The notes beneath the pieces are model-generated. The model did no database searches. It was not told the origin of the DNA and worked only from the letters and a program-made list of their open reading frames with translations. The position numbers and the translations under genes were made by a program. A stretch of DNA of 63,356 nucleotides, counting the filler, from Stramenopiles sp. TOSAG23-2 (lineage: Eukaryota), in NCBI GenBank assembly GCA_900128395.1. It is 7 parts of 7 records of this genome, joined end to end, with 100 filler letters (N's around TTAATTAATTAA, not from the genome) between each part and the next. Parts side by side here need not be neighbours in the genome. Positions count along the whole stretch, not along the records: positions 18,147 to 27,112 come from LT650137.1; 6 more parts are not named here. The stretch is one strand, 5' to 3'. Of the stretch, positions 8,979 through 54,404 are shown one piece after another; position 1 is the first letter of the stretch, and the number at the start of each line of letters is the position of its first letter.

Positions 8979-9078
8979 NNNNNNNNNNNNNNNNNNNNNN
9001 NNNNNNNNNNNNNNNNNNNNNNTTAATTAATTAANNNNNNNNNNNNNNNNNNNNNNNNNNNNNNNNNNNNNNNNNNNN
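8979..9078. other. Artificial contig linker
   Basis: 44 N + TTAATTAATTAA (stops in all six frames) + 44 N. Confidence 0.98.
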
Positions 9079-9105: not shown

Positions 9106-12100
9106 ATGTTGGTGAAAAAATCACCTATTAAACGAAATATTGCAAGTATGGAGAAAGGGGTCGAAGTAAATCCTGTAATAGAATCCGATATTACAAAGGA
9201 CAGCATTGATGCACTTAATCAATACCACATTATTTTTACACCATCCATATATCATAAATTCTTTATCGCTGTTATTATTTTCGCTTGTGTTTCAAATGTT
9301 AATTATTGGTTTTCCGCTGGTGAAGATGTTATTGATAGACAGGTAAACACTTTGGTATTTGATTTAAGTGTAGAATTGCAATTAAAATTAGAAGCATTTT
9401 TAAAAGTGCCAATGGGATTTGTTAAAATGATGTCATTGTTTTATCATTTAGAAATGTTACCCAGTGGTTTGTTCAATGCAGGGCGTGATAGAAACCGTGC
9501 GGATGCTAGCAACGTTGGTATGTTGAGGGCATATCCACCAGATCAGAGGCCATTTTTTTGTTATATTGGGACAGAGGAAGGTAGTTTTTTGGGAGCTAAA
9601 ATCGATCCAAAATATAAACCATTGGGAGTCTTAGTATCTGCAAAAGATAATAGTACAGGTAAAGATTTATGCACAGGTGATCCGTATACGGTATCATACT
9701 TTTTAAAAACAATAGGAAACCATTATCATATCAGAGATTCTACGTCCATTGTACCAAAGGCAAATGGCGATCTGAGTATTTATTCTGGCTACAATCCAAA
9801 GCAACGACCTTGGTATCGTAGTGGAATCAAAATGCCATATATACCTAGTTGGAGTCCTGTATATGAATTTAGTAGCGTTTATCCACCGACTATTGGTATT
9901 ACAGCTGTAATTGGATTTAATCATTCGAGGAGAAAAAATGATTTTTTTGGAGTTGCAGCGGTGGATTATACATTAAAACAATTAAATGAATTGTTGGAAA
10001 ATACTATGGAACACATTTCCGAATTGCTACGGGATGGCATTGGAACAGCTTACATTGTCGAAAACACTGGTAATATTATAGCGTTATCAAGCGGTGTTCC
10101 AATTATAAGGCAGTATAGTGAAAATGGGAATTTTAATCGTATACATGCAGCTGCATTATGTGCTAGACGCGATCAATTTCCAGATGAATGTGACCCTGCA
10201 ATCAGCGCATCATTTATGGAATTAGAAAATCGGTTGGAGGAAGGATTTTTTACGAATAATCTTTTGGAGAAGAATTATCCGGATGGCTTGGAAATGGAGA
10301 TCGGGCGTGGCAACGAGCTCGGTGTTATGATGGTACGCTTATCCGTTTTAAAAAGTGAGGAGGGATTAAACTGGGTATTAATCAGTGGGTTTGGAAAACG
10401 GAGTTTCTTAGCAAAGTTTGGCCGTTATAAAGATTTATATTTAATTTCAAGTTTAGGCATAAGTTGTTTTGCTGTATTAGTTGGATTTTTATTTTCACAT
10501 GGGAAATTGAAGCGTCTATATGGGAAGAAAAAAAGCATAGAGCAAAGAAAAAAAGATGAACTTGATAAGAAATTAGTGGATGATGAAGTAGATTTTCGTC
10601 AACGAATACGTACTCAAACAGATATAGATAGTGAAGATTTCTTCCATGAATTTCGTCGATTACTTGCACCTACTGTATTGTCAGCAAATTTAGTATGCCG
10701 TTTCAATGGAAATGAAGCAAAACCTCCGAAAATTTATCAAACATTTCGACGATTATTGTTGGATAAAAAAGAAAAGGGAAGTAGTATTTTCAAACAGCTT
10801 GATAGAAATGGCGATGGTAACATATCATATGATGAGTTTTTAATAGGTTTAAGTTCGTTAGGTTACCAGACAACAGAGGCTGAAGCAGAATTGCTTTTTG
10901 CTGCGCTAGATAAAAACAGGTCTGGTTCTATCAGCTATCAAGAAATAATTGAAGATGAAAATATCATTTTAGTAGAATCAGAAGCAACGTTGGCAGAGAA
11001 ACATAGAGCATTGGAATATCTCCTCCTTTCTGAAAACACTGAATGTAACATAATTGACTTTTTGCATTTACAACGAAACAATGATGTTCCGAGGATACTT
11101 GCGTATAAATGGTTTTACTCTACGCAATATTTTATTTTTGTGACTTGCAGCGTTATATTAAATTTATCATTGTCATTTTTAGAAGCTCCAGCGAGTAGTC
11201 AGAATTACTTTACGAAAAATAAAGACGAAGATGGGCGTATTTTAGCATTGAAATTGGTAACAATTTTATCCATATTATTATATTTGTTTGATTTAATTCT
11301 AGAAATATGGCTTTTTGGTATATATGAGCCCGATCGATCGTTAAAAGAATCTAGGAAAGTTAAAACATCTCATCGAAGAGGTAAATTTGATGACATTAAT
11401 AAAAGAAATATAACTCATCAACATACCATGTTAAATAAGATAATTGTTGGAAAAATCATTTTGATGTTGTTTTTTATAATTGATACGATTGCACCAGTAT
11501 ATTACACTGGTAGAGGTGTTTTAAGTCCAATTGACAATGAAGATACTCAATTGTTGTTTCTATTACCTTACACGGCTTTATTAAGAGCTTTTTGGCCAAT
11601 GTTACGCTTTGGTGGAATACGAACAACGCTGATCATTTTCACCAAGACTATCTATGGCGCACGGGCAGTTTTTTTCACGTTTTTTATAACATTAATGGTC
11701 TTTTCGATGATTGGTACTACCTTGTTAAGCAACAGATTTTCTTACGATACATTTGATAGTTTTCAATCCGTTTACCGATCATTTAGTACTTTATTCATAT
11801 ATATGATTACAGCAGAAAATTATCCTGATGTCGTGTATCCGCCAACTGTTTGCCATAATGAATCAATTGCTAATTCCCGTGAAGGTGGGGTCATATCAGC
11901 AGAGTGTAACGATTCTTTCATACATATTTACACTATTTTAGCAAGTTTATCTGGTACATTTTTAATCGTATCTTTGATTATAGCGGCGTTCGAGGAAGGA
12001 TTTATTAGCCATATGGAAAAAAATAGAGTTGATGAGACAATTAGATCGCGAATGGCAATCATTGCAGCATTTATTATTTTAGACAAGGACAATGGCGGTT

Positions 12101-13827
12101 CATTAGATAAATTAGAATTTCTTAATTTCTTCAACGGGACATGCAATACTGGTAGAATTTTTCATGTAGATGATGGGTTTGAATTGAGTGGAGCAGATTT
12201 TTTTCAATTATGTGAAGAACTATTGCATGAAATGAAATATGAAAAAGTGGAAGAGATGCATATGGTGGAATTTGGTGAAGCAGACAAAAAATTACATTTT
12301 GATACGTGCACATGGCATGAATTGTTTGAATATTTGCGTACATTGAACATAAATGGTTTGCCACCAGAAGAGGGAACGTTAGATCCAAGTCATCCGGGTG
12401 ATAAAGCAGTAATAGAATATTGGCGTCATCGCGGGGCAGATTACCATCAAGAACATGAACGATCGAAGAACAATGAGGCAACAGGAAAAGTTGATAATGC
12501 TGGTAATGAGGAAAATCTAGGCAACAAATTGAGTCGGTTTTACGTAGATGAAATGTATTTGATTACCGTAACATGTTTACTTTTAATGAATTGTGGCTTA
12601 GTTTGTCTATATGGTGCATCATCAAAAGATAATACAGCTTCGCTTGATACAATTAACGGTTTATTTGTAATCTTTTGGTTTATCGAGCTTGTAGTGAAAA
12701 TAATAATTGTAGGGTATGACAATTACATCCATGTAAACGATGATTTTTTCAAAGAAGTAAAAAATAAAGTAGATGGTTTTGTTGTAGTATTTTCGTTTGC
12801 ATTTTTGATTATATTAGCAACACACCGTTTGATTGTGTTGAATACTGGCTATGTCTTTGAACCATGGAAAGAATGCTTATCGGCAGCAAATTGCGAAGTA
12901 AATGATTGGGCAAGAGTAATTGTATCCTTAAACGTGTTGCGCTTGTTTGGAGAGTTTGAAATGGTGAAAAAAATTGTCTTTTGTTTCTATGTTATCGTAC
13001 CAAATTATTTCACGATAATACAATTAACGGTGCTCTTGATATATAGCTACGCAGTCTACGGCTGTATAGCATTTGGTGGGACATTCAAATATTTACACAA
13101 TTACGACATGGGGCAAGCAAATTTCAATTCTATGACTGATAGTATTATTACGTTAATTCAATTGTATGTAGGTGAAGCATGGAATAGCGTGATGCTAGCA
13201 GCATTTGATAGTATCGGCAGTGGTGCTTATCCATTCTTTTTTAGTTATGTAATTATTAGTACATTGCTATTGACAAATTTACTTGTCGGTGTTATAATAA
13301 ATGGATTTAAGGAGACTGTTAATGTGCAAAAACATGTAGAATCAAAACGTTTGGCAAAAGTTCCATCTTTACTTATTCAACGAGCATTGAAAGAGGGTAA
13401 AATATCAGAGCCAAGATTAAAATTTGAATATGGTAAAAATAATGTTATGCATATAGAGCATAATCCAGAATTATTAAGACGAATGACATATAAGGCAGAT
13501 AGAGACTTATACGAAGCCGCAAAAAACAACAAGATTTTACAGGACAAGAAAAAAATGCGCCAAATAGAATTAGAACACAATATAACGCGCGCATCTAAAT
13601 TTGAACGATTAGTTGAAAGATCGAAAGATCAATTTGGATTTTACACTAACAATAGCCGGAAAATTATCTCACGATATGCTATGGTTGTACTGGAGGAAGA
13701 AGCTGAAGATAAGAAACGTATTTTTTCGAAAGATGGTGAATATAATAAGAAAAATACTAGAACAACGACTAAAGTTGATAAATCTGTTATTAATAAAATC
13801 GATATGGAAAAATTAGGGTTAGGATGA
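9106..13827 (+). CDS. dCache sensor / EF-hand / two-pore-channel-like (2 x 6TM) fusion protein, 1573 aa; may be 5'-partial
   Basis: TM - dCache (YIGTEEGSF, YNPKQRPWY, WSPVY, GVAAVD, AYIVENTGNIIA, GLNWVLI) - TM; EF-hand pair (DRNGDGNISYDE, DKNRSGSISYQE); channel repeat I with pore LFIYMITAENYPDVVYP; linker EF-hand DKDNGGSLDKLE; repeat II with pore TLIQLYVGEAWNSVM and S6 LLTNLLVGVII. The frame is open back to the contig edge at 9079. Confidence 0.85.
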   Translation: MLVKKSPIKRNIASMEKGVEVNPVIESDITKDSIDALNQYHIIFTPSIYHKFFIAVIIFACVSNVNYWFSAGEDVIDRQVNTLVFDLSVELQLKLEAFLKVPMGFVKMMSLFYHLEMLPSGLFNAGRDRNRADASNVGMLRAYPPDQRPFFCYIGTEEGSFLGAKIDPKYKPLGVLVSAKDNSTGKDLCTGDPYTVSYFLKTIGNHYHIRDSTSIVPKANGDLSIYSGYNPKQRPWYRSGIKMPYIPSWSPVYEFSSVYPPTIGITAVIGFNHSRRKNDFFGVAAVDYTLKQLNELLENTMEHISELLRDGIGTAYIVENTGNIIALSSGVPIIRQYSENGNFNRIHAAALCARRDQFPDECDPAISASFMELENRLEEGFFTNNLLEKNYPDGLEMEIGRGNELGVMMVRLSVLKSEEGLNWVLISGFGKRSFLAKFGRYKDLYLISSLGISCFAVLVGFLFSHGKLKRLYGKKKSIEQRKKDELDKKLVDDEVDFRQRIRTQTDIDSEDFFHEFRRLLAPTVLSANLVCRFNGNEAKPPKIYQTFRRLLLDKKEKGSSIFKQLDRNGDGNISYDEFLIGLSSLGYQTTEAEAELLFAALDKNRSGSISYQEIIEDENIILVESEATLAEKHRALEYLLLSENTECNIIDFLHLQRNNDVPRILAYKWFYSTQYFIFVTCSVILNLSLSFLEAPASSQNYFTKNKDEDGRILALKLVTILSILLYLFDLILEIWLFGIYEPDRSLKESRKVKTSHRRGKFDDINKRNITHQHTMLNKIIVGKIILMLFFIIDTIAPVYYTGRGVLSPIDNEDTQLLFLLPYTALLRAFWPMLRFGGIRTTLIIFTKTIYGARAVFFTFFITLMVFSMIGTTLLSNRFSYDTFDSFQSVYRSFSTLFIYMITAENYPDVVYPPTVCHNESIANSREGGVISAECNDSFIHIYTILASLSGTFLIVSLIIAAFEEGFISHMEKNRVDETIRSRMAIIAAFIILDKDNGGSLDKLEFLNFFNGTCNTGRIFHVDDGFELSGADFFQLCEELLHEMKYEKVEEMHMVEFGEADKKLHFDTCTWHELFEYLRTLNINGLPPEEGTLDPSHPGDKAVIEYWRHRGADYHQEHERSKNNEATGKVDNAGNEENLGNKLSRFYVDEMYLITVTCLLLMNCGLVCLYGASSKDNTASLDTINGLFVIFWFIELVVKIIIVGYDNYIHVNDDFFKEVKNKVDGFVVVFSFAFLIILATHRLIVLNTGYVFEPWKECLSAANCEVNDWARVIVSLNVLRLFGEFEMVKKIVFCFYVIVPNYFTIIQLTVLLIYSYAVYGCIAFGGTFKYLHNYDMGQANFNSMTDSIITLIQLYVGEAWNSVMLAAFDSIGSGAYPFFFSYVIISTLLLTNLLVGVIINGFKETVNVQKHVESKRLAKVPSLLIQRALKEGKISEPRLKFEYGKNNVMHIEHNPELLRRMTYKADRDLYEAAKNNKILQDKKKMRQIELEHNITRASKFERLVERSKDQFGFYTNNSRKIISRYAMVVLEEEAEDKKRIFSKDGEYNKKNTRTTTKVDKSVINKIDMEKLGLG

Positions 13828-18046: not shown

Positions 18047-18146
18047 NNNNNNNNNNNNNNNNNNNNNNNNNNNNNNNNNNNNNNNNNNNNTTAATTAATT
18101 AANNNNNNNNNNNNNNNNNNNNNNNNNNNNNNNNNNNNNNNNNNNN
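18047..18146. other. Artificial contig linker
   Basis: 44 N + TTAATTAATTAA + 44 N. Confidence 0.98.
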
Positions 18147-18747
18147 GGTTGATGCTGCTGGGTTGGACGATTATTATTATTGCTGGAAGAGTTGCTTCCT
18201 TAACCTGATGGTATATAATGGTATAATATTAATATATTAATATTAATACTGTATTTTCCATTGTATATATAGTAATATTAATAGTAAAAATGAAAAAATG
18301 CCAATACTCTGTATATTAATAGTATTTAATTTGATAATAATCCTGATTTTTCAAAACAAAATAAAAATCACCGCGTGAATATGAGGAGATTTATACTGAT
18401 ACTATAATTTTTCATAGAGTTCAAAGGCACTTTTGCCCTATTTACAGGATACAGGTTTTCCATTTTCCATATTTTTTTCTGTTTTTCCAGTGCTACCCTA
18501 TGATATATCAGTTATTTTTATATTATCACAGAGTTTTTTTTTTAAAAAAATAGATAATGGCAAAACAATGATGCGCTAATCAACACTATAAACATTCTAT
18601 CATTTATACGACAAAACTATAAATATAACATTCCAACATTCCCAATATATTTCATGAAACAAATAGTCTAAGAGTAATATATTATATTATTTGATATGAA
18701 AAATTGAATAATAAGTTATTTGATATAAAAAATAGAGAAAGACAAAT

Positions 18748-21700
18748 ATGGCGAAAAAGTCTGGCGAGAATTCTATTACTGATAAAAATAATGTAAAAAA
18801 AGAGAATGATAGTAGTGACAATGTTGAAAAAAAGAAGAGCGAAAAGGCTGAATCAGTAACTTCAAAAGCAAAACAAAAAATTGTTGGATTTAGTACCAAC
18901 TCTGTATTTAAGAAAAAAGAGAAAAAGACAACGAAAGAAAATGGTGAAGATGTGAAATCACCAGCAGCTCCTAAAGAAAAGGTATATCGTAAATCGACAT
19001 TTGAGCTGTCAGAAAAAGATTTTGAAATATTTGGAACAGATAAGAAAATAGAAAAAAAACTTGAACAATTAAATGATAAACTAGGCGGGATAGAAAAAAT
19101 CATGAAATTATTGAAAATAGATGAACGTAATGGTATGTGTTCACCAAAGGAGGAGAAATACGCTGCCAAAGCTAAGAAAAAGCTAGATATTGCTATTGAA
19201 TATCGGAAATCGTTTGGTGACAATAAATTACCAAATATACCACCTAATCGTTTATTGCATTTCATCATAGAAGGTTTTGATGATATAACTTTATTAATAT
19301 TATTATTTGCATCTGTTTTATCATTTATTATTGGATTGGCTGATGATCCCATAAATGGATGGAGCGAAGGATTTTCAATTGTATTATCTATCGTATTTGT
19401 CTCTTCCATATCAGGTATGATAGAATATTATAAAGATCAAAGTTTAAATGCAATTGATAAAAAAAGTAATACATCATATTCTACAATAATTCGTGATGGT
19501 AATCATATGCATATTAAAAGTGAAGATCTTGTTGTTGGTGATTTAATTGTATTGGATGTAGGGAACCGTGTCCCATGCGATTGCTTAATAGTTGATGACG
19601 ATATATCATTATATACACAAGATTTTACCAATAGTGCTGGTGGTAGAAGCACAAGTCCAATGTTAATAAATGATAAAGAGAAAAATCCGTTTATTCTTTC
19701 CGGGTACGATATCGTTAAAGGAACATGTAGAGCTGTTGCAATTTCCGTTGGTGAAAATAGTCGGCAATATAAAGAAATTGTAAAGCGTAATTTAGAAACT
19801 ACAACAGATACTGCATTGCAAGGTAGACTTCAAGGCGTTGCAAATTACGTGACATACACAGGCATTTTTTTCGCGATAGTAATTTTTATTGTGATTGCTG
19901 CAACGTTTGAAGATGCAACGTATCGTGAAGGTCGTAGTGATGCAAGATATTTCATCGATGCGATTGTCCTTGCAGCAACTATTGTAGTCGTTGCAATTCC
20001 AGAAGGTTTGCCAATGACCGTGGCGATATCATTGGGATTTAGAGCAAACACGATTTTAGAACAAAATTTACTAATACGTAAAGTAAGTGGGAATGAAAAC
20101 ATGGGATATGTTACTGATATTTTGCCAAATAAAACTGGTACATTTACAAAAAACGACATGGTATGTTCAGCTGGTTGGTTTGCCGATTTATATTACAGTA
20201 CAAGTGATGGAATACCAAATGGTAAAAAAAAGTTTGAAAAATATCTTTATGATATTATACGAGAAAATATTGCACAAAATTCATCTACGACAGTTACATA
20301 TCACAAGAAAGTAATAAAGAAACAATCCATGGCTGCTAAAAGTGCAGCGTTTTTAGGTAAAATGATGGGCAGCGGGGAAAAAAACAAAGATAAAAAAGCT
20401 GAAAGTGGTAAACCAGAAGCTGAGCGTGATGGTGGTATGGACGTTCAAATATTTGGCACACAAACAGAAGCTGCTTTGATTCGAATGATGGTTGACAAAA
20501 TGGGTTGTGCAAAAGATTTTTTCATATATGAACGTAAAGTTAATGTGAGGAAATGCTTTTATACATTTACACCTAGTGCCAGGATAAGTGCAGCAGTTGT
20601 GGAGAAAAAAACAAATGGCAACGGGTATCGGTTATATGTAAAAGGTGCTGCGGAAACAGTTGTCAAACTATGTTTTAAATATCTAGATCATCGTGCTGAA
20701 ATGCAAGATTTAGATTATAAAAAGAAACAATATATTATCAACGATTTGATTGTTAAAATGGGAAGAGCACAATTACGACCGATTGCATTAGCTCATTGTG
20801 ATTTTGATGAAATAACAAAATTGAAATTGCCAACAAATCTAAAACAGATAGATTGGATATTTAAACAGAAATTAGTATTAGATGCTATCGTAGGGATCAA
20901 AGATCCATTACGTGATGGCATATCAGATGCAGTATTAAAATGTCAAAAAGCTGGAATTAAAATACGCATGGTTACCGGGGAACATATTGACACTGCACGT
21001 GCTATATGTACTCGTTTAAATATATTAAGCGATGAGAAGAATGCATATCTAGCGAGTGATTTAGAACGTTTATCATTGAGCCAAATTGACAAAATTTTAC
21101 CTTCCATTGAAATTATTGCACGATGTCCACCTGAATTTAAAAAAGGTTTTGTAAGCCGATTAAATGGCAAAGCATTGCCAAGAAATAAAAAAGAATGGTG
21201 TAAATTACATAACATCAAAGATACGGAATGGGATCAACAAGCATCACGCTTGTTGCCTGGATATCACGATGAATGGTATAATCATCATGTTCGTGATAGT
21301 AACATCGTTGGCGTTGTTGGAAAACATCCGGAAGATATTTTGACTTTAAGTGTTGGTAACATTGGCCTTGCGCTTGCCAAAAGTTCAACAACTGGAGCTA
21401 AATTATCATCAGATGTTTCAGCCATGGATGATAGCTTTTCAACCATTGTGAAAAGTGTTACATGGGGAAGAGCTTTGCAAGAAAATGTTCGAAGTTTTTT
21501 GCAATTTCAATTGACTACAAATTTCGTCGTATTGTCCTTCTCATTAATTATTGCATTGCATGGAGAGCAAGTTCCATTCAATGCGGTTATGTTATTATGG
21601 ACGAATTTAATTATGGATACATTGGCTGCAGTAGCATTTGGCACGGAAGCACCGTTTCACATGTCAATGGAACGTTTGCCATATCGACGTGATGCTGATT

Positions 21701-22404
21701 TAATCAATAAAGAAATGCGAAAAAATATTATTGTTCAAGGTTCATTCCAATTGCTTTTGTTAATCATATTGTATTTCGACGGTCACACAATGTTTCAAAA
21801 AACTGATGGAACGTTTATTAATAAAGGCAGCGTATGTATAAAGAACTTTACAAATACTGATGATGTATCCCCAACTCCAAGTAGTGCACCGGTGATATGC
21901 TCTGAATACGATTACACACATTATACCATCGTGTTTAATACATTTATATTCCAGCAAATATTTAACTTTTTCAATGCTCGTAGGTTAGAAGCTGATGCAA
22001 AATCTGTATGCCAAGGATTTCAGCGAAATTGGACGTTTTTAGGAACAATTTTTTTCATTGTAATATTTCAATATTTTCTTGTTAATTTTGCAAGTACCTT
22101 GTTGAAAACTAGTAATGCTTTAACAATCGGGCATTGGATTGCGTGTTGTTTAATGGCAATGTTTACTGTATTGCCAGTCGGTTTTTTATTACGTTATTTA
22201 AATAATACGAAAAGCGATGATATGAAAACGTTTAGTGGATATCCAGGTTTAGTACCTGTTGTGGAAGAGGAAGAAGAGGAAGATGGTGGAGCGAAAGAAC
22301 CAAATTCCCCAACATCATTAATGGAGAAAGGTAAATTATCAAAAGGTAAAAGTACACCGACTTCGCCATCGAAAAAAAAGTCGTCAAAGTATGTTGTAAA
22401 ATAA
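18748..22404 (+). CDS. P2B (PMCA/ACA-type) Ca2+-ATPase-like protein with degenerate catalytic motifs
   Basis: DITLLILL, GWSEG, VVAIPEGLP, YVKGAAE, VGIKDPLR, AGIKIRMVTG, WGR...FLQFQLT, LLWTNLIMDTLAA, FNTFIFQQIFNFFNAR are PMCA hallmarks; DKTGT reads NKTGT. Confidence 0.9.
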   Translation: MAKKSGENSITDKNNVKKENDSSDNVEKKKSEKAESVTSKAKQKIVGFSTNSVFKKKEKKTTKENGEDVKSPAAPKEKVYRKSTFELSEKDFEIFGTDKKIEKKLEQLNDKLGGIEKIMKLLKIDERNGMCSPKEEKYAAKAKKKLDIAIEYRKSFGDNKLPNIPPNRLLHFIIEGFDDITLLILLFASVLSFIIGLADDPINGWSEGFSIVLSIVFVSSISGMIEYYKDQSLNAIDKKSNTSYSTIIRDGNHMHIKSEDLVVGDLIVLDVGNRVPCDCLIVDDDISLYTQDFTNSAGGRSTSPMLINDKEKNPFILSGYDIVKGTCRAVAISVGENSRQYKEIVKRNLETTTDTALQGRLQGVANYVTYTGIFFAIVIFIVIAATFEDATYREGRSDARYFIDAIVLAATIVVVAIPEGLPMTVAISLGFRANTILEQNLLIRKVSGNENMGYVTDILPNKTGTFTKNDMVCSAGWFADLYYSTSDGIPNGKKKFEKYLYDIIRENIAQNSSTTVTYHKKVIKKQSMAAKSAAFLGKMMGSGEKNKDKKAESGKPEAERDGGMDVQIFGTQTEAALIRMMVDKMGCAKDFFIYERKVNVRKCFYTFTPSARISAAVVEKKTNGNGYRLYVKGAAETVVKLCFKYLDHRAEMQDLDYKKKQYIINDLIVKMGRAQLRPIALAHCDFDEITKLKLPTNLKQIDWIFKQKLVLDAIVGIKDPLRDGISDAVLKCQKAGIKIRMVTGEHIDTARAICTRLNILSDEKNAYLASDLERLSLSQIDKILPSIEIIARCPPEFKKGFVSRLNGKALPRNKKEWCKLHNIKDTEWDQQASRLLPGYHDEWYNHHVRDSNIVGVVGKHPEDILTLSVGNIGLALAKSSTTGAKLSSDVSAMDDSFSTIVKSVTWGRALQENVRSFLQFQLTTNFVVLSFSLIIALHGEQVPFNAVMLLWTNLIMDTLAAVAFGTEAPFHMSMERLPYRRDADLINKEMRKNIIVQGSFQLLLLIILYFDGHTMFQKTDGTFINKGSVCIKNFTNTDDVSPTPSSAPVICSEYDYTHYTIVFNTFIFQQIFNFFNARRLEADAKSVCQGFQRNWTFLGTIFFIVIFQYFLVNFASTLLKTSNALTIGHWIACCLMAMFTVLPVGFLLRYLNNTKSDDMKTFSGYPGLVPVVEEEEEEDGGAKEPNSPTSLMEKGKLSKGKSTPTSPSKKKSSKYVVK

Positions 22405-22609
22405 ATATATACGTATTTTTAGGTAAGAGAAGAAACGAGTGAAACAAAGCAGCAGAGAGGGGTGAGAGGTGGTAGGTCTAAAAGAATTTTGTACCCCCTG
22501 GTTCTTGTTAATAATATACTCGTGTATCATATTTCATACGTCGTACATATATCATATGATATCATATGCATATTTATTATACTGCATAAATTAAAATAAA
22601 ATATTATTT

Positions 22610-23623
22610 TTACAAACTTGTCATGATTCTACAATTTTCTTCTTCCAATAATTTCGTTGGGCATTTGATACCCCCATTTTTTGGCGTTAATGTTATTTTA
22701 CGAGTACGTCTTCGTATTGCGAACACGTTGTCATCGATATTATTACCTTTCTTTGCTGCATTTTCACAACTACTCCATTCAGACCAATCTGTAAATTCAC
22801 AATTAATTTTTGCTAAATTTTCAATTTCAGTTTTTGATAATGCTTTATCCCATAGTTGCAAATCATCATATGCAGCATTTATTGGATTGGCTAAATCTTG
22901 ATATTGTCTACCTAATATGATATTTTTCACTTGACGTCGAGCAATAGCTTCATACCGAACGGCACCTTCTACAAACCCATCTAATTTGCCATCAACATAT
23001 AGTTGAAATATTTGTTTCGTTGCATCTAATACAACTGCAACGTGTCTCCATTCCCCTATATTTAAAGCTGTAATGGTATTAACGACTCTTGGTCTTTGAG
23101 CACGTAAACCACATAAACCTTCATTTGCTTCGTGTTTAGTAGGTATTAAAAAAACATGTGCACCTTGCCTTGTAGACATTAAACGTATAGATGCAGGGCA
23201 GCGATCTACACAATTGTCACATGATATGTCAAAAACACAACCACCTGGGTCGTTTATATCCATTTTTATCCAAACACCAATAGTAATACTATCCATTGGA
23301 AACCCTTTCACCGTTGGAAATTCAACATATGGATGTCGTAACGTTGAACTTCGCCATGTATATGCTGCTTTATTGCGTTGGTTGAACCTGTTGCTTGCTG
23401 GAATCAATGGTCCATTTTGCCATTCGCCTTCAAGATAATTTGATGGATCCAATGTAAACGTAACATTTCTAGTAGAAACAACCGTTATATGAAGAATAAT
23501 ACAAATAATCAATAATATAATATGTTGATAAATATTATGAGGATGATATTGAAAAAATAATTTCGAAAAAGAACATGATGAAAATGAGGATGATCGTGAT
23601 AATAATGATGCAATGAACGACAT
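22610..23623 (-). CDS. Secreted LamG-like (concanavalin A fold) + thrombospondin type-1 (spondin-like) protein
   Basis: Hydrophobic signal segment; ITIGVWIK, GEWRHVAVV, LYVDGK, DDLQLWDKALS (Laminin_G_3 pattern); C..TDWSEWSSC...RRRTR...PKNGGIKCP..EEENC (TSP1). Confidence 0.8.
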   Translation of the reverse strand: MSFIASLLSRSSSFSSCSFSKLFFQYHPHNIYQHIILLIICIILHITVVSTRNVTFTLDPSNYLEGEWQNGPLIPASNRFNQRNKAAYTWRSSTLRHPYVEFPTVKGFPMDSITIGVWIKMDINDPGGCVFDISCDNCVDRCPASIRLMSTRQGAHVFLIPTKHEANEGLCGLRAQRPRVVNTITALNIGEWRHVAVVLDATKQIFQLYVDGKLDGFVEGAVRYEAIARRQVKNIILGRQYQDLANPINAAYDDLQLWDKALSKTEIENLAKINCEFTDWSEWSSCENAAKKGNNIDDNVFAIRRRTRKITLTPKNGGIKCPTKLLEEENCRIMTSL

Positions 23624-27112: not shown

Positions 27113-27212
27113 NNNNNNNNNNNNNNNNNNNNNNNNNNNNNNNNNNNNNNNNNNNNTTAATTAATTAANNNNNNNNNNNNNNNNNNNNNNNNNNNNNNNN
27201 NNNNNNNNNNNN
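27113..27212. other. Artificial contig linker
   Basis: 44 N + TTAATTAATTAA + 44 N. Confidence 0.98.
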
Positions 27213-30200
27213 GGATCGTTCCGATGTTACGTATTGGATTTGGAAAGGAACGATTAAATATGGATGATTTGCCATCTTTAGCATCTTGTGATGAACCTAT
27301 TAATATTTATGAAAAATATATAAATATATGGGAAAAACAATATATATTAAAAAATAAAACACCTAGTTTAATACGAATTTTACATAAAACATTAGGATAT
27401 CGATTTTGGAAAGGTGGTTTTTTACTTTTACTTGGTCAAACTGCTGCAATATTTATTCCGATTATTACACATGAATTGCTAACAAGTTTAGAAACGCGTG
27501 AAAATAAAGATACGGATACAAAGTTATACAGCAAAGGTGGTTCATTGGAATATTTAATTTTATTAGTACTTNNNNNNNNNNNNNNNNNNNNNNNNNNNNN
27601 NNNNNNNNNNNNNNNNNNNNNNNNNNNNNNNNNNNNNNNNNNNNNNNNNNNNNNNNNNNNNNNNNNNNNNNNNNNNNNNNNNNNGTACTTTTATTAACTT
27701 TCATGTCGGCGATGCAATCCATTTTAACCCATCAATTTTGGATTGTTGGTGTTAGAGTATCAATGCATAGTAAAATGATATTGCAAACTCATATATTAGA
27801 TCATGTGATGAATTTAAGCCATCGATCTAGATCAACAACTACGGAAGGGGAAATGTCAAATTTAGTCAGTAGTGATGCCAGCAAAATTGCTAATTCATTT
27901 TGGGGGTGTATGGTTCATTGGGGTGGATGGTGTAGCATCGGTACAATTGTAATAGCAATGTATAATTTACATTCACTACTGGGTTTTGGAGCGTATGCAG
28001 GTGTACTGGTAATTTTGCTTTTTATGCCAACCTCTTATTATTTATCACAATATATTAAAACCGTGTATAAGAAAATGATGTCTTATCGCGATAAGCGTGG
28101 AAAGAGAATGGTAGAAAATTTAAGAGCAATACGAATATTAAAGGCATTCACTGCTGAAACTGCTGCATGGAATGATATAGATGAAATGAGGACTTTGGAA
28201 TTGAAGTGGCAGCGTTATCAGCAATTTTTAAATATTGGCAATATTATTTTATCTAATATAGGCCCTGTGTTGGTCAATGCTGCATCGTTTATGGTGTTTT
28301 CATTTTACGGTGGAAAGGTTACGGCGGCAAAAATTTTTACCTCCTTGCTGTGGTTTACAATGTTACAAGGGGCTATGACACGTATACCAGGCACTATAAT
28401 AACCACGATGAATGTATTTGGGAGTTTAGAAAGGTTGGAAAAATTTTTACTATTAGATAAAAATAAAAACATCCCCAATGAACGAACAAGAGGGGAGAAA
28501 TATTTAAAGGTGGAGAATTGTTCATTTGGTTGGTATGATAGTGGCAGTAAGCATAATAATAGCGGCGAGGGCGATAATAATAATATCGATGATGATGCTA
28601 AGAAGATAAAATCAATTGTACACAACGTAACTTTCAATGCAAAAGAAGGTGATTTTATATGTTTAGTCGGTCCTGTTGGATGTGGTAAAAGTAGTATTTT
28701 AGCAGGATTGACTAGTAATAATGTACATATTTCTGGTAAGATTCAATACAATGGTGACATGGCATATGTTACTCAAAGACCATGGCTACGTAATGCAAGT
28801 ATATTAGAAAATATTATTGATTTTGATTTTAATGATACTGGTTATGATTTTAACAACAACAACAATAAAAATACAATAAAAGTTGATGAAACAAAATTAA
28901 ATCGATGCATTGATATATGTGCACTACAAGCAGATCTTGATATGTTTGAGGATGGAATTGATACGCTTGTTGGTAGTAATGGCGTTACATTAAGTGGTGG
29001 TCAAAGGCAACGTATTAGTTTAGCACGTGCGATGTACTCGGATGCAGATATTTATATTTTTGATGATGTTTTATCCGCTGTTGATGAAAATGTAGGCAAG
29101 CATATTTTTAATAATTGCATAGTGAAAAATTTAATTGAGAAAAAGAAAATTGTAATACTAGCAACACATGCAGAGCAATACATTAAAAATAATGCAAATG
29201 TTAGCAACATTTATACAATTGATATAACAAATGGTAAATTTATAAATATGAAAGCGTTCACTAATCGAAACAGTGATGATGAAGAGAAAGTTGATGAAGA
29301 TGGTAAAAAGACTAATAACAACAATGACCTGGATTCGAAAAATAGTACAATGGAAGAAAATAAAGGGAAAAAAAATAAAGAGAAACGAAAGAAAGGTTAT
29401 GTATCATTTCAAGATATAAAGCAATATATCCATGCATTTGGAATTTTTACAACTTTAATGCTTCTAGTTTTATTTATTATACGCCAATTAATTACGGTTG
29501 GGCAACAATATTGGCTAACCATTTGGGTTCGCTCTGCCAATCCTGGATCTACATATTATGTATACGTATATGGAGCAATAGGTCTAATCTTAGTTGGTTT
29601 TACTGGTGTATCATGTTACTTTATTGTTGTTGGGAGTATAAATGGCGCTAGAATTATGCATGATAAAGCAATGAAAGCTTTGCTTTGTTCTCGCATTACA
29701 TTTTTTGACACCACACCATTTGGTGTAATTGTAAATCGTATGTTAAATGACATAGCCAAGATCGATTCCAATATGTCAAGAGCAATCGTCGGGCTAGCAA
29801 TGTCAATTTTGCAAGTATTTAGTACGATTGGTGTTGTTGTTTTCGTAACACCATTTGTTATTATCATGGTAATAATATTAATATGGCCCTATTACTTATG
29901 TGGTTTGTATTATCGATGGAGCTCACGTGAATTGAGGCGTTTAACGAGCACGACACGTTCTCCGATCATAACAAATTTCTCTGAAACTGTTGATGGCATG
30001 GATATTATTCGAGCATATCATGGAGAAGATGTTACATTTCATAGATTTACGGATGCAGTGCGCAGAAATGCTCGGGCATATTACATGTTTTGGGTTTCAA
30101 ACCAATGGGTGTCGGCAGTTTTAGATGCCATGGGAGTCTTTATCATATTTATTAGTACTGGTTCTGCAGTATACTTGCATTTATTTCAAAACGGCGTTGA

Positions 30201-31200
30201 TCCAGCCTTAATCGGATTTTGTTTAACATATACGTTAAACTTACCCTTTGCATTGATGTGGTTGATACGTAATTTAGCAACAGCAGAGACTGAATTAGTT
30301 GCTGTTGAACGGATTGTTGAATATAGCAATATTGAGAAAGAAGATGATCGTGTTGTTTTTAACAAAAGACAAAACAACAAGCAAAAAACAAACAATAGAG
30401 GGCCATTGACCTTTTTGATTGATGATGATAGTAAAGAAGTATCGTTACTGAAAGATCATGCTGCGATGAATTATAATACTACTAATGGCATTCTCAGAAA
30501 CAATCGTGGCTGTATTAAATTTCAAAACGTCACTATGAAATATAGAAAAGATTTAACACCTGTATTACAAAATGTTTCTTTTGAAATTCCCGGTGGTAAA
30601 AAAGTTGCTGTCATCGGAAGAACAGGTGCGGGTAAGACTAGCATTTTTATGGCGTTATTACGTTTTTATGAATGTGAACAACATAGTGCAATTTATCTAA
30701 ACGATAAAAATATTGTTACTGAATATAAAAATATAAATGACTATCGCAAACACATTGCATATGTACCACAAGAGGCAATATTGTTTTCTGGTACGATCCG
30801 CGCATCATTGACTAAAAATCGGGAAGATGAAGTCAAAGATGAAGATGTTTGGGGTGTATTGGAAAAAGTAAAAATGCGAAGAAAGATTCAATCATTAGAT
30901 GATGGTTTGGACACGGAAATTGTGGAAGGTGGAAAGAATTTTTCTCATGGTGAAAGACAATTATTATGTCTTGCTAGGGCATTATTGAACAAAGAAGCTT
31001 CAATAGTATTAGCAGATGAAGCAACTGCGAGTGTTGACAATTCGAATGAACTTTTAATCCAACAAGTAATATTAAATTTACCGATGACTGTGTTGTACAT
31101 ATGTCATCGTTTAGTTAATTTGAATCAATTTGACTTGTTAATGATCATGGAAGATGGAAAGGTCAAACGCATTTGTAAACCTGAAGATAGATGGAGTTAA
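27213..31200 (+). CDS. ABCC/MRP-family ABC transporter (TMD-NBD-TMD-NBD), probably 5'-partial, spanning the N-gap at 27572-27684
   Basis: Lasso-like PMLRIG...LNMDDL; GEMSNLVSSD; NBD1 GPVGCGKS / LSGGQRQR / IFDD; FFDTTPFG; NBD2 GRTGAGKT / FSHGERQ / DEAT / CHRL. ORFs 27224 and 27703 join in frame if the GTACTT on both sides of the gap is collapsed. Confidence 0.92.
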
Positions 31201-32356: not shown

Positions 32357-32495
32357 TTTTTTAATTTACTCATGATAATTCCTACTCTTCNNNNNNNNNN
32401 NNNNNNNNNTGATAATTCCTACTCTTCAAAAGAATACAATAACTGAAATAATCTATCTCACACTCTAGTGCACTAGTGTGTTGATATTCTCATAA
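32357..32495 (-). repeat. Dispersed ~100-bp repeat, copy A (interrupted by a 19-N gap with an 18-nt overlap)
   Basis: Reverse complement reads ttatgagaatatcaacac..gtgtgagatagat..tcagttattgtattcttttgaagagtaggaattatcatgagtaaattaaaaaa, matching 40782-40887 and 58506-58580. Confidence 0.88.
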
Positions 32496-36177: not shown

Positions 36178-36277
36178 NNNNNNNNNNNNNNNNNNNNNNN
36201 NNNNNNNNNNNNNNNNNNNNNTTAATTAATTAANNNNNNNNNNNNNNNNNNNNNNNNNNNNNNNNNNNNNNNNNNNN
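36178..36277. other. Artificial contig linker
   Basis: 44 N + TTAATTAATTAA + 44 N. Confidence 0.98.
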
Positions 36278-45241: not shown

Positions 45242-45341
45242 NNNNNNNNNNNNNNNNNNNNNNNNNNNNNNNNNNNNNNNNNNNNTTAATTAATTAANNN
45301 NNNNNNNNNNNNNNNNNNNNNNNNNNNNNNNNNNNNNNNNN
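45242..45341. other. Artificial contig linker
   Basis: 44 N + TTAATTAATTAA + 44 N. Confidence 0.98.
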
Positions 45342-54304: not shown

Positions 54305-54404
54305 NNNNNNNNNNNNNNNNNNNNNNNNNNNNNNNNNNNNNNNNNNNNTTAATTAATTAANNNNNNNNNNNNNNNNNNNNNNNNNNNNNNNNNNNNNNNN
54401 NNNN
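54305..54404. other. Artificial contig linker
   Basis: 44 N + TTAATTAATTAA + 44 N. Confidence 0.98.

Follow-up and report, generated by a model that had tools for sequence, protein, structure and literature searches.

A free-standing PMCA-type protein of marine stramenopiles that lacks the catalytic motifs of P-type pumps

Stramenopiles sp. TOSAG23-2 (GenBank assembly GCA_900128395.1) carries a gene for a full-length PMCA-type protein, here termed P0001, that has lost the catalytic residues of the P-type ATPases and has retained those of the Ca2+ site. The gene lies on the plus strand at 18748..22404 of the stretch of DNA analysed (the window), 63,356 nucleotides comprising seven parts of seven records of this genome joined end to end with filler between them; the part concerned is taken from LT650137.1. 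P0001 stands outside the catalytically competent P-type ATPases, as four of their defining features are missing: the Asp nucleophile is replaced by Asn461, the TGES loop is lost, and neither the TGD nor the GDGxND motif of the phosphate/Mg2+ site is preserved. It is very probable that the protein is both catalytically dead and maintained by selection. The best explanation of the evidence as a whole, that a P2B descendant without a phosphoenzyme cycle has been kept for another job, with a role as sensor or regulator included, we regard as reasonably probable.

The gene is a single open reading frame (ORF) with an ATG start and, on translation, no internal stop. In alignments with intact relatives its TNSA, NKTGT, TGE and GKHPED sequences fall at the canonical positions of TGES, DKTGT, TGD and GDGxND, respectively. 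These motifs are listed below with the retained ion- and nucleotide-site elements and, where relevant, with their states in the ortholog P0003, the ortholog fragment P0136 and the more distant P0004 (aa, amino acids).

18748..22404 (+): complete, intron-less pseudo-pump ORF, stop codon included; 1218 aa.
19627..19638 (+): former TGES dephosphorylation loop of the A domain, reading TNSA (aa 294-297); TNNA in P0003.
19999..20013 (+): M4 motif PEGLP with the Ca2+-ligand Glu419 kept; Glu in 253/261 intact relatives and also in P0003 and P0004.
20128..20142 (+): phosphorylation motif, reading NKTGT; Asn461 (AAT at 20128-20130) replaces the nucleophile Asp.
20641..20655 (+): N-domain motif KGAAE with Lys632; Phe607 and Arg677 of the nucleotide pocket are likewise kept.
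20974..20982 (+): TGD motif, reading TGE (Glu745); TGEH in P0003 and P0136, TGD kept in P0004.
21178..21291 (+): P-domain insert, approximately aa 811-848 (...PRNKKEW...WDQQ...LPGY.DEW...), placed by alignment with PMCA-like relatives.
21319..21336 (+): GDGxND motif, reading GKHPED, with Lys859 for Asp, His860 for Gly and Glu862 for Asn, Asp863 being kept; identical in P0003.
21604..21618 (+): M6 motif NLIMD with the Ca2+ ligands Asn953 and Asp957 kept; M5 Asn925 (QLTTN) is kept too.

The first-pass annotation of this DNA had described an intact ORF with these four altered motifs alongside conserved PEGLP, NLIMD and KGAAE, and had argued that four separate losses rule out a single sequencing error. 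A scripted string check found each of these elements where it had been placed. Sequencing error is excluded because two independent public contigs, L001 and L002, carry the same motif states. The phosphorylation site of P0001 reads PNKTGTF in context, so that the Lys, Thr, Gly and Thr of DKTGT are kept, and NKTGTFT is also present in P0002, P0003 and P0145. The HAD/P-type mechanism cannot dispense with an Asp nucleophile; if no phosphoenzyme forms, both the E1P/E2P cycle and uphill transport are ruled out, and P0001 cannot pump by the known mechanism.

Judged from its sequence, P0001 descends from a PMCA-type (P2B) Ca2+ pump. The Pfam models Cation_ATPase_N, E1-E2_ATPase, Cation_ATPase and Cation_ATPase_C all score above their cutoffs, PF00702 (Hydrolase, HAD) falls below its own (19.7 vs 26.4 bits), and TIGR01517, the NCBIfam PMCA-type equivalog, is passed by a narrow margin (526.1 bits, cutoff 507.05); the intact relative P0005 scores 913.3 bits against the same model. 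The A, N and P domains and a 10-helix membrane domain place the protein in the P-type superfamily by descent and fold, and Glu419, Asn953 and Asp957, with Asn925, supply the residues of the single PMCA-type Ca2+ site. The closest solved structures by sequence are Arabidopsis ACA8 (8qmp, E 7e-108), followed by PMCA1/PMCA2 (6a69 and entries beginning 9gs). The P-domain insert (LNG..P..K.EW...WD...PGY..EW) occurs in the intact proteins P0005, P0007, P0008, P0012 and P0014 and is absent from P0043 and P0046; the named members among its carriers are stramenopiles, and plant and oomycete sequences aligned without it. Named members of the wider PMCA-like group are mostly stramenopile, including diatoms, Tribonema, Triparma, Chrysoparadoxa and oomycetes. 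A quick LG+G4 tree of 51 rows, chosen as best matches plus named outgroups from the 281 proteins collected and supported by SH-aLRT values only, nests P0001 among the PMCA-like sequences, in agreement with the P2B affinity first proposed for it. Compared with the PMCA/ACA pumps, P0001 has the same domain order, predicted fold, M4/M5/M6 Ca2+ ligands and P-domain insert of the PMCA-like subfamily, and differs in lacking the phosphorylated Asp, TGES, the Asp of TGD and the first Asp of GDGxND.

Loss of the nucleophile is rare among these proteins. A motif census covered the 278 proteins of at least 250 aa among those collected, four of which were blank at the phosphorylation column. The Asp is missing from only seven rows, four of them P0001 and its close orthologs (P0002, P0003 and P0145) and three from unrelated lineages (P0094, P0278 and P0280); the pattern is therefore rare and lineage-specific rather than a matter of chance. 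Removal of 17 degenerate or fragmentary rows left an intact set of 261, in which every row with a residue at this column has Asp. The TGES column of the census was unusable, MAFFT having given the P0001 loop columns of its own, and TGES states were taken from smaller alignments.

Within the intact set, 117 columns are at least 95% conserved, and P0001 keeps 90 of these. Retention amounts to 23/25 columns in TM5-10, 13/17 in TM3-4, 27/37 in the C-terminal half of the P domain, 9/13 in its N-terminal half and 5/7 in the N domain, and falls to 0/3 for the TGE of TGES, where intact relatives show at least 96% conservation and P0001 has gaps. The replacements group at the catalytic site (D461N, C449N within ACETMG -> GNENMG, D745E, D797F, T857V, D859K, G860H and N862E) and extend to invariant residues beyond the four motifs, as in the change of SPxDK to PPEFK. 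Lys462, Thr463, Gly464, Thr465, Lys798, Asp863, Asp719, Arg722, Thr743 and Gly744 are all kept, as are Glu419, Asn925, Asn953 and Asp957 at the ion site and Phe607, Lys632 and Arg677 in the N domain. Arg612 stands where 254/261 intact rows have Lys in the MAFFT alignment; a HMMER alignment to PMCA1 moves its partner by one residue, so that the basic residue can be said to lie there or immediately next to it. We take the positions of Phe607, Lys632, Arg677 and Arg612 to be ATP contacts, from what is known of SERCA and PMCA, and the first Asp of GDGxND is presumably a Mg2+ ligand.

The nearest relatives share these losses, and the ortholog search recovered no close ortholog with intact motifs. 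P0002 differs from P0001 at 6/1218 positions, all conservatively, whilst P0003 (1251 aa, 77% identity) reads SNKTGTFT, TNNA, TGEH and GKHPED. The losses recur in two fragments, P0145 (69%; NKTGTFT, GNENMG) and P0136 (76%; TGEH, PEFK), which are counted as one further lineage because they overlap each other. Identity between P0001 and P0003 is highest in the two halves of the P domain (89% and 87%), followed by TM1-2 (88%), the N domain (81%), TM3-4 (80%), TM5-10 (78%) and the A domain (74%); a P domain that is the best conserved part is inconsistent with drift at a dead active site. All 24 of the 24 invariant-column residues replaced in P0001 are identical in P0003, at an overall identity of ~77-80%. 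Average drift would produce such agreement with a chance of ~0.005 (0.8^24), and the fixation of the replaced residues suggests that the old catalytic pocket has come under a constraint of a new kind. A search with a profile built from the dead clade turned up no additional member among the 120 matches listed, from which P0001-P0003 were themselves absent; P0004 scored 2063 bits, the next match 898, and every other listed match carries PF00702. A search of sequence representatives added only two clade fragments.

Comparison of near-identical strains indicates purifying selection. A metagenome scan returned only the near-identical loci L001, L002 and L003, of which the first two are the independent contigs with the gene. 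By the Nei-Gojobori method, P0001 and L002 differ by 13 synonymous and 6 non-synonymous changes, a ratio of non-synonymous to synonymous rates (dN/dS) of 0.12 (Fisher p 1e-5), and P0001 and L001, compared over aa 192-1218 and differing by a two-codon poly-Glu indel, by 24.5 and 15.5, respectively (dN/dS 0.17; Fisher p 9e-8). Both comparisons depart from neutrality, and values of 0.12-0.17 are not near 1, the figure that the first-pass annotation had associated with a decaying pseudogene. The poly-Glu tract, at 22255-22275 (aa ~1171-1176) near the C-terminus, differs in length among strains, with two extra codons in L001 and 6-base insertions at 22262 and 22266 in RNA-library contigs, all changes being in frame.

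Part of the gene is found in 22 public runs, 16 of them recorded as RNA, from nine studies, all marine/seawater. Four runs from four studies were examined: two polyA-selected metatranscriptomes, one oligo-dT library and one cDNA metatranscriptome. Each of them yielded contigs 95-100% identical along the ORF (23, 11, 7 and 12 contigs, covering 27, 22, 16 and 23 of 30 bins). As regards expression, which had been put forward for checking, the gene is present in RNA-library contigs from four studies, three of them with polyA or oligo-dT libraries; carried-over DNA is possible, and the contigs are consistent with transcription without proving it. Three of the variants listed from runs X7 and X9 lie in the GKHPED codons (21321 A>G, 21327 T>C and 21336 T>C), none of which alters the amino acid encoded. 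The in-ORF variants among those listed number 25, split into 12 synonymous and 13 non-synonymous, a split used here for the GKHPED codons only and not as an estimate of dN/dS; the non-synonymous changes cluster in the N-terminal extension and near a contig end, and aa 41-145 hold eight of them with five synonymous changes among the variants listed. In the polyA/oligo-dT runs X3, X7 and X9 there is little or no contig cover at 18384-18751, and the intergenic 22432-22615 is absent from X3 and low in X7 and X9; since missing cover does not count as evidence, no weight was placed on this pattern.

Orthologs, dN/dS, RNA-library contigs and tree together uphold the core inference of the first-pass annotation, a selected, non-catalytic P-type protein that is neither a sequencing error nor a decaying pseudogene. 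Catalytic residues have been lost, and the loss is common to orthologs under purifying selection, which is what defines a pseudoenzyme.

The order in which the residues were lost can be read from the tree. P0001 and P0003 form a clade that is sister to one of P0004 and P0122, each clade and the group uniting them having an SH-aLRT support of 100. The stem common to both has a length of 0.52 and the stem to the P0001/P0003 clade one of 1.05, with tips of 0.14 and 0.11; these lengths describe rapid change and then conservation. P0004 shares 36% identity with P0001 and represents a 90% cluster of 11 members, seven of them full length (1156-1163 aa), one member carrying the EukProt label of the stramenopile MAST-4. 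Within the sequences compared, this label and the named relatives are the basis for regarding the lineage as stramenopile. Marks common to P0004 and P0001 are GWFADLYYS.SDGIPNG and a C-terminal SKYV, and the Ca2+ ligands are strictly kept in P0001, P0003 and P0004. P0004 keeps DKTGS and TGD, has a long K/E-rich insert in place of TGES and reads GNRMGD at GDGxND. Since this sister clade still has the Asp and TGD and is already without TGES and GDGxND, the losses were stepwise: TGES and the first Asp of GDGxND went before the P0001/P0004 clade split, and the nucleophile and the Asp of TGD went later, on the P0001 branch. DKTGT, TGES and TGD are all preserved in P0148, which the tree places as a sister on a long branch (support 97).

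The full ten-helix pump architecture is predicted to persist. An AlphaFold2 model of aa 81-1160, built from a 44-row alignment, has a mean pLDDT of 82.1 and a pTM of 0.79, with pLDDT <50 at the former TGES loop (aa 292-302; model residues 212-222) and at an N-domain insert (aa 542-562). Foldseek matches it to PMCA, SERCA and SPCA with E as low as 2e-56 and TMt as high as 0.87. Its closest resemblance is to mouse PMCA captured in the E1-ATP and E1-Ca-ATP states (TMt 0.79-0.82) and to E1-AMPPCP structures of SERCA/SPCA, whereas TMt is 0.57-0.59 for structures in E2 and E2P.

Three further elements lie in the terminal regions.

18748..19077 (+): Lys/Glu-rich N-terminal extension, aa 1-110; fast-evolving, 49% identity with P0003.
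18874..18927 (+): basic-hydrophobic stretch QKIVGFSTNSVFKKKEKK, aa 43-60, within the N-terminal extension; the equivalent in P0003 is QKIVGFSRKSVFKKKKKK.
22384..22401 (+): C-terminal SKYVVK; also SKYVVK in P0003 and SKYVLQKP in the distant P0004, with S, K, Y and V invariant in the alignment.

The basic-hydrophobic stretch could be a regulatory or calmodulin-type site; MAFFT aligned it opposite the N-terminal region of the plant ACA-type protein P0046, which is only a lead. SKYVVK may be a sorting or partner-binding tail. An antisense ORF of 240 aa (18687-19409, minus strand) overlaps the 5' part of the gene opposite the Lys/Glu-rich extension and is taken to be a by-product of a low-complexity coding region.

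The first-pass annotation had named a Ca2+/nucleotide sensor, a leak pathway and a scaffold for active pumps as candidate roles. The most likely single role for P0001, put forward tentatively and as something short of an even chance, is that of a Ca2+- and nucleotide-dependent sensor or regulatory subunit. Cytosolic Ca2+ would still bind at the single PMCA-type site, to judge from the residues kept there, and the retained N-domain residues suggest that ATP is probably bound and not hydrolysed. The remodelled and frozen pocket formed by Asn461, Glu745, Phe797, Lys859, His860 and Glu862 would then hold the cytoplasmic headpiece in a ligand-dependent conformation, with Lys859 possibly standing in place of the catalytic Mg2+. 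The highly conserved P domain and the conserved tails could relay a signal to partners, for instance to PMCA paralogs that are still active or to different membrane proteins; P0001 itself would move no Ca2+ uphill. A bolder formulation, which we consider doubtful as a whole, treats the protein as a ligand-operated device, either a Ca2+/ATP-binding receptor or a gated Ca2+ pathway, in which a Lys/His/Glu-lined ex-phosphorylation pocket has replaced the phosphoenzyme switch. This would be the first P-type case, and its origin in marine stramenopiles would have been stepwise, TGES and the Mg2+ site being lost first and the nucleophile afterwards.

Several observations weigh against a selected sensor of this kind. 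The ortholog P0003 scores 504.5 bits with TIGR01517, slightly below the cutoff of 507.05. The dN/dS values rest on few differences between close strains, and RNA-library contigs, besides possibly including DNA, show neither strand nor level. The Ca2+-ligand role of the kept transmembrane residues is one that we assume from work on SERCA and PMCA, and the E1-like pose of the model may merely mirror the active pumps in its alignment. P0004 has Ser at the position of Arg677 and APVR at DPxR, the Asp being lost; nucleotide binding may therefore not be a property of the whole clade.

Among the alternatives to a sensor or regulatory subunit, the one that survives best, itself rather unlikely, is a passive pathway, in which the membrane domain conducts Ca2+ (or Ca2+/H+) downhill as a leak, channel or uniporter, possibly gated by ATP at the N domain. 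The preserved Ca2+ ligands and TM5-10 columns (23/25) would suit such a pathway, as would the 88% identity of TM1-2 to P0003 and the clade-specific changes beside the ion path, where LAVT following PEGLP has become MTVA and the Glu of FNEFNAR, found in 206/261 intact relatives, has become Phe. Palytoxin demonstrates that a P-type pump can be turned into a channel, and the ABC transporters offer a parallel in CFTR. In canonical pumps, however, opening of the exit gate requires the phosphorylated E2P state, which is out of reach for P0001; no obvious pore-widening substitutions were seen, and a function confined to the membrane domain would not be expected to leave the P domain as the most conserved part.

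Less likely again is a ligand-independent scaffold or assembly partner. The protein would then contribute only its pump-like shape, pairing with active pumps or other membrane proteins or helping to target or stabilise them, and its Ca2+ and nucleotide sites would be purely structural. Such a role would account for the conserved tails, both the basic N-terminal stretch and the C-terminal SKYV that persists even in the 36%-identical P0004, and the absence from P0004 of Arg677 and of the DPxR Asp argues against a clade-wide nucleotide role. Strict retention of the Ca2+ ligands in P0001, P0003 and P0004 nevertheless exceeds what a passive scaffold would be expected to need, as does the fixation of the remodelled pocket at 24/24 replaced positions.

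A recently inactivated pseudogene whose frame is still open would fit four lost catalytic motifs, the sub-threshold PF00702 score and the long stem branch, but is highly improbable, being already contradicted by an open frame in at least three lineages and in the P0004 clade (seven full-length members), by the dN/dS values, by short tips after a long stem, by the fixed replacements and by the presence of the gene in RNA libraries. Equally remote is a working ATP-driven pump relying on unconventional chemistry or on mRNA editing back to Asp, for which the kept Lys, Thr, Gly and Thr of DKTGT, Lys798, Asp863 and the TIGR01517 score can be cited, yet the obligatory Asp and three more catalytic motifs are gone, restoration would demand many simultaneous edits, and no difference at 20128 is found among the variants listed from RNA-library contigs, where cover is thin.

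The nearest printed precedent found for a non-cycling P-type ATPase is the P4-ATPase flippase module of the P4GC guanylate-cyclase chimeras of alveolates and stramenopiles, in which the Asp of DKTGT and the Glu of the A-domain motif (LDGET) are altered in some lineages (PMC13466520). Cryptosporidium, P4GC-beta, gregarines and Tetrahymena show the changes described there; the paper discusses loss of ATPase activity, and the module is retained and considered necessary (PMC13466520). P0001 resembles this module in keeping a P-type ATPase body despite altered catalytic residues. It differs in that P4GC is a P4 lipid flippase fused to a cyclase (PMC13466520), whereas P0001 is a free-standing P2B descendant without a fused effector. 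Full-text literature searches, whose coverage leaves most subscription journals outside, found neither a free-standing P2B pseudo-pump nor NKTGT in the context of a P-type ATPase, and a term search within a 2023 review, PMC10654040, returned no mention of a P2B pseudo-pump.

A looser analogy may be drawn with the ABC family, in which SUR, a channel regulator, and CFTR, a channel, are derived from transporter bodies. P0001 would resemble these in the reuse of an active-transporter body for regulation or passive conduction with nucleotide binding as a switch; it differs in superfamily and chemistry, and in having lost its only hydrolytic site, where SUR and CFTR keep at least one.

The three remaining Asp-lacking rows of the census are, like P0001, PMCA-type proteins in which part of GDGxND is also lost. 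P0280 reads NITGT, TAEN and GASVQD, scores 601 bits with TIGR01517 and groups with P0143 on the tree. P0278 reads GKSGT and TTDSTRD, has kept TGES, scores 669 bits and groups with P0101; its N-terminal region matches a non-ribosomal peptide synthetase (NRPS) terminal domain model. Because P0280 and P0278 lie elsewhere on the tree, their losses are separate events. P0094, a Fagus sylvatica record, has NKTGT and GDSTND, and its duplicated M4 region suggests a faulty gene model or a pseudogene. Dead P2B pumps may be a recurrent theme.

The window surrounding the gene is AT-rich (G+C ~0.28-0.41 in 2-kb windows) and dense with long, intron-less ORFs of eukaryotic type, including ankyrin/LRR, SET and PX-PH proteins, an Ion_trans + EF-hand channel, a class I aldolase, an ABC transporter, exportin-5 and GCN1. 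A search with the neighbouring aldolase gave marine relatives at 94-79% identity, those with names, such as Mallomonas, reaching only ~63%, and an Atlas search with the pseudo-pump yielded no annotation beyond 'P-type ATPase'. The channel ORF (9106-13827, plus strand; 1573 aa) contains two Ion_trans stretches and an EF-hand pair, the make-up of a cation channel of voltage-gated or two-pore type that also has a Ca2+-binding module; along the joined window its distance upstream of the pseudo-pump is 5 kb, without evidence of a functional link. The convergent neighbour (22610-23623, minus strand; 337 aa) encodes a concanavalin-A-like (Laminin_G_3) domain and a TSP1 repeat, and has the highest word depths on the stretch in two polyA RNA runs (16.5 and 25.2), although contig depths cannot rank genes. 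The ABC transporter ORF (27703-31200, plus strand; 1165 aa, ABC_membrane + ABC_tran) is preceded on the same strand by a 157-aa ORF (27224-27697), and the gene is probably longer than the ORF listed, a 113-base run of N separating the two. Paired 44-base N runs with 12 bases between them recur every ~9,065 bases (8979-9078, 18047-18146, 27113-27212, 36178-36277, 45242-45341 and 54305-54404) and look like a masking or scaffolding artefact rather than biology. The N runs at 27572-27684 and 32391-32409 look like ordinary gaps, and no N run touches the pseudo-pump ORF.

P-type cation pumps are textbook enzymes in which the phosphorylated Asp is treated as invariant, and the P0001 lineage is a pseudoenzyme form of this classic pump, found in uncultured marine protists as a clade that is small yet deep. 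If the present reading is correct, the existence of a free-standing, conserved and apparently expressed dead PMCA with a Ca2+ site would mean that the pump body can be selected for something other than pumping. Such a protein would also provide a natural 'frozen' pump for the structural study of ion and nucleotide binding without turnover. The series leading from intact relatives through the P0004 type to the P0001 type offers a natural order of loss, against which it could be tested which partial reactions were given up first. Should P0001 indeed be ligand-operated, it would be to the P-type ATPases what CFTR and SUR are to the ABC transporters. For the organisms concerned, the finding would add a previously unrecognised Ca2+-handling component to abundant, uncultured marine heterotrophic protists.

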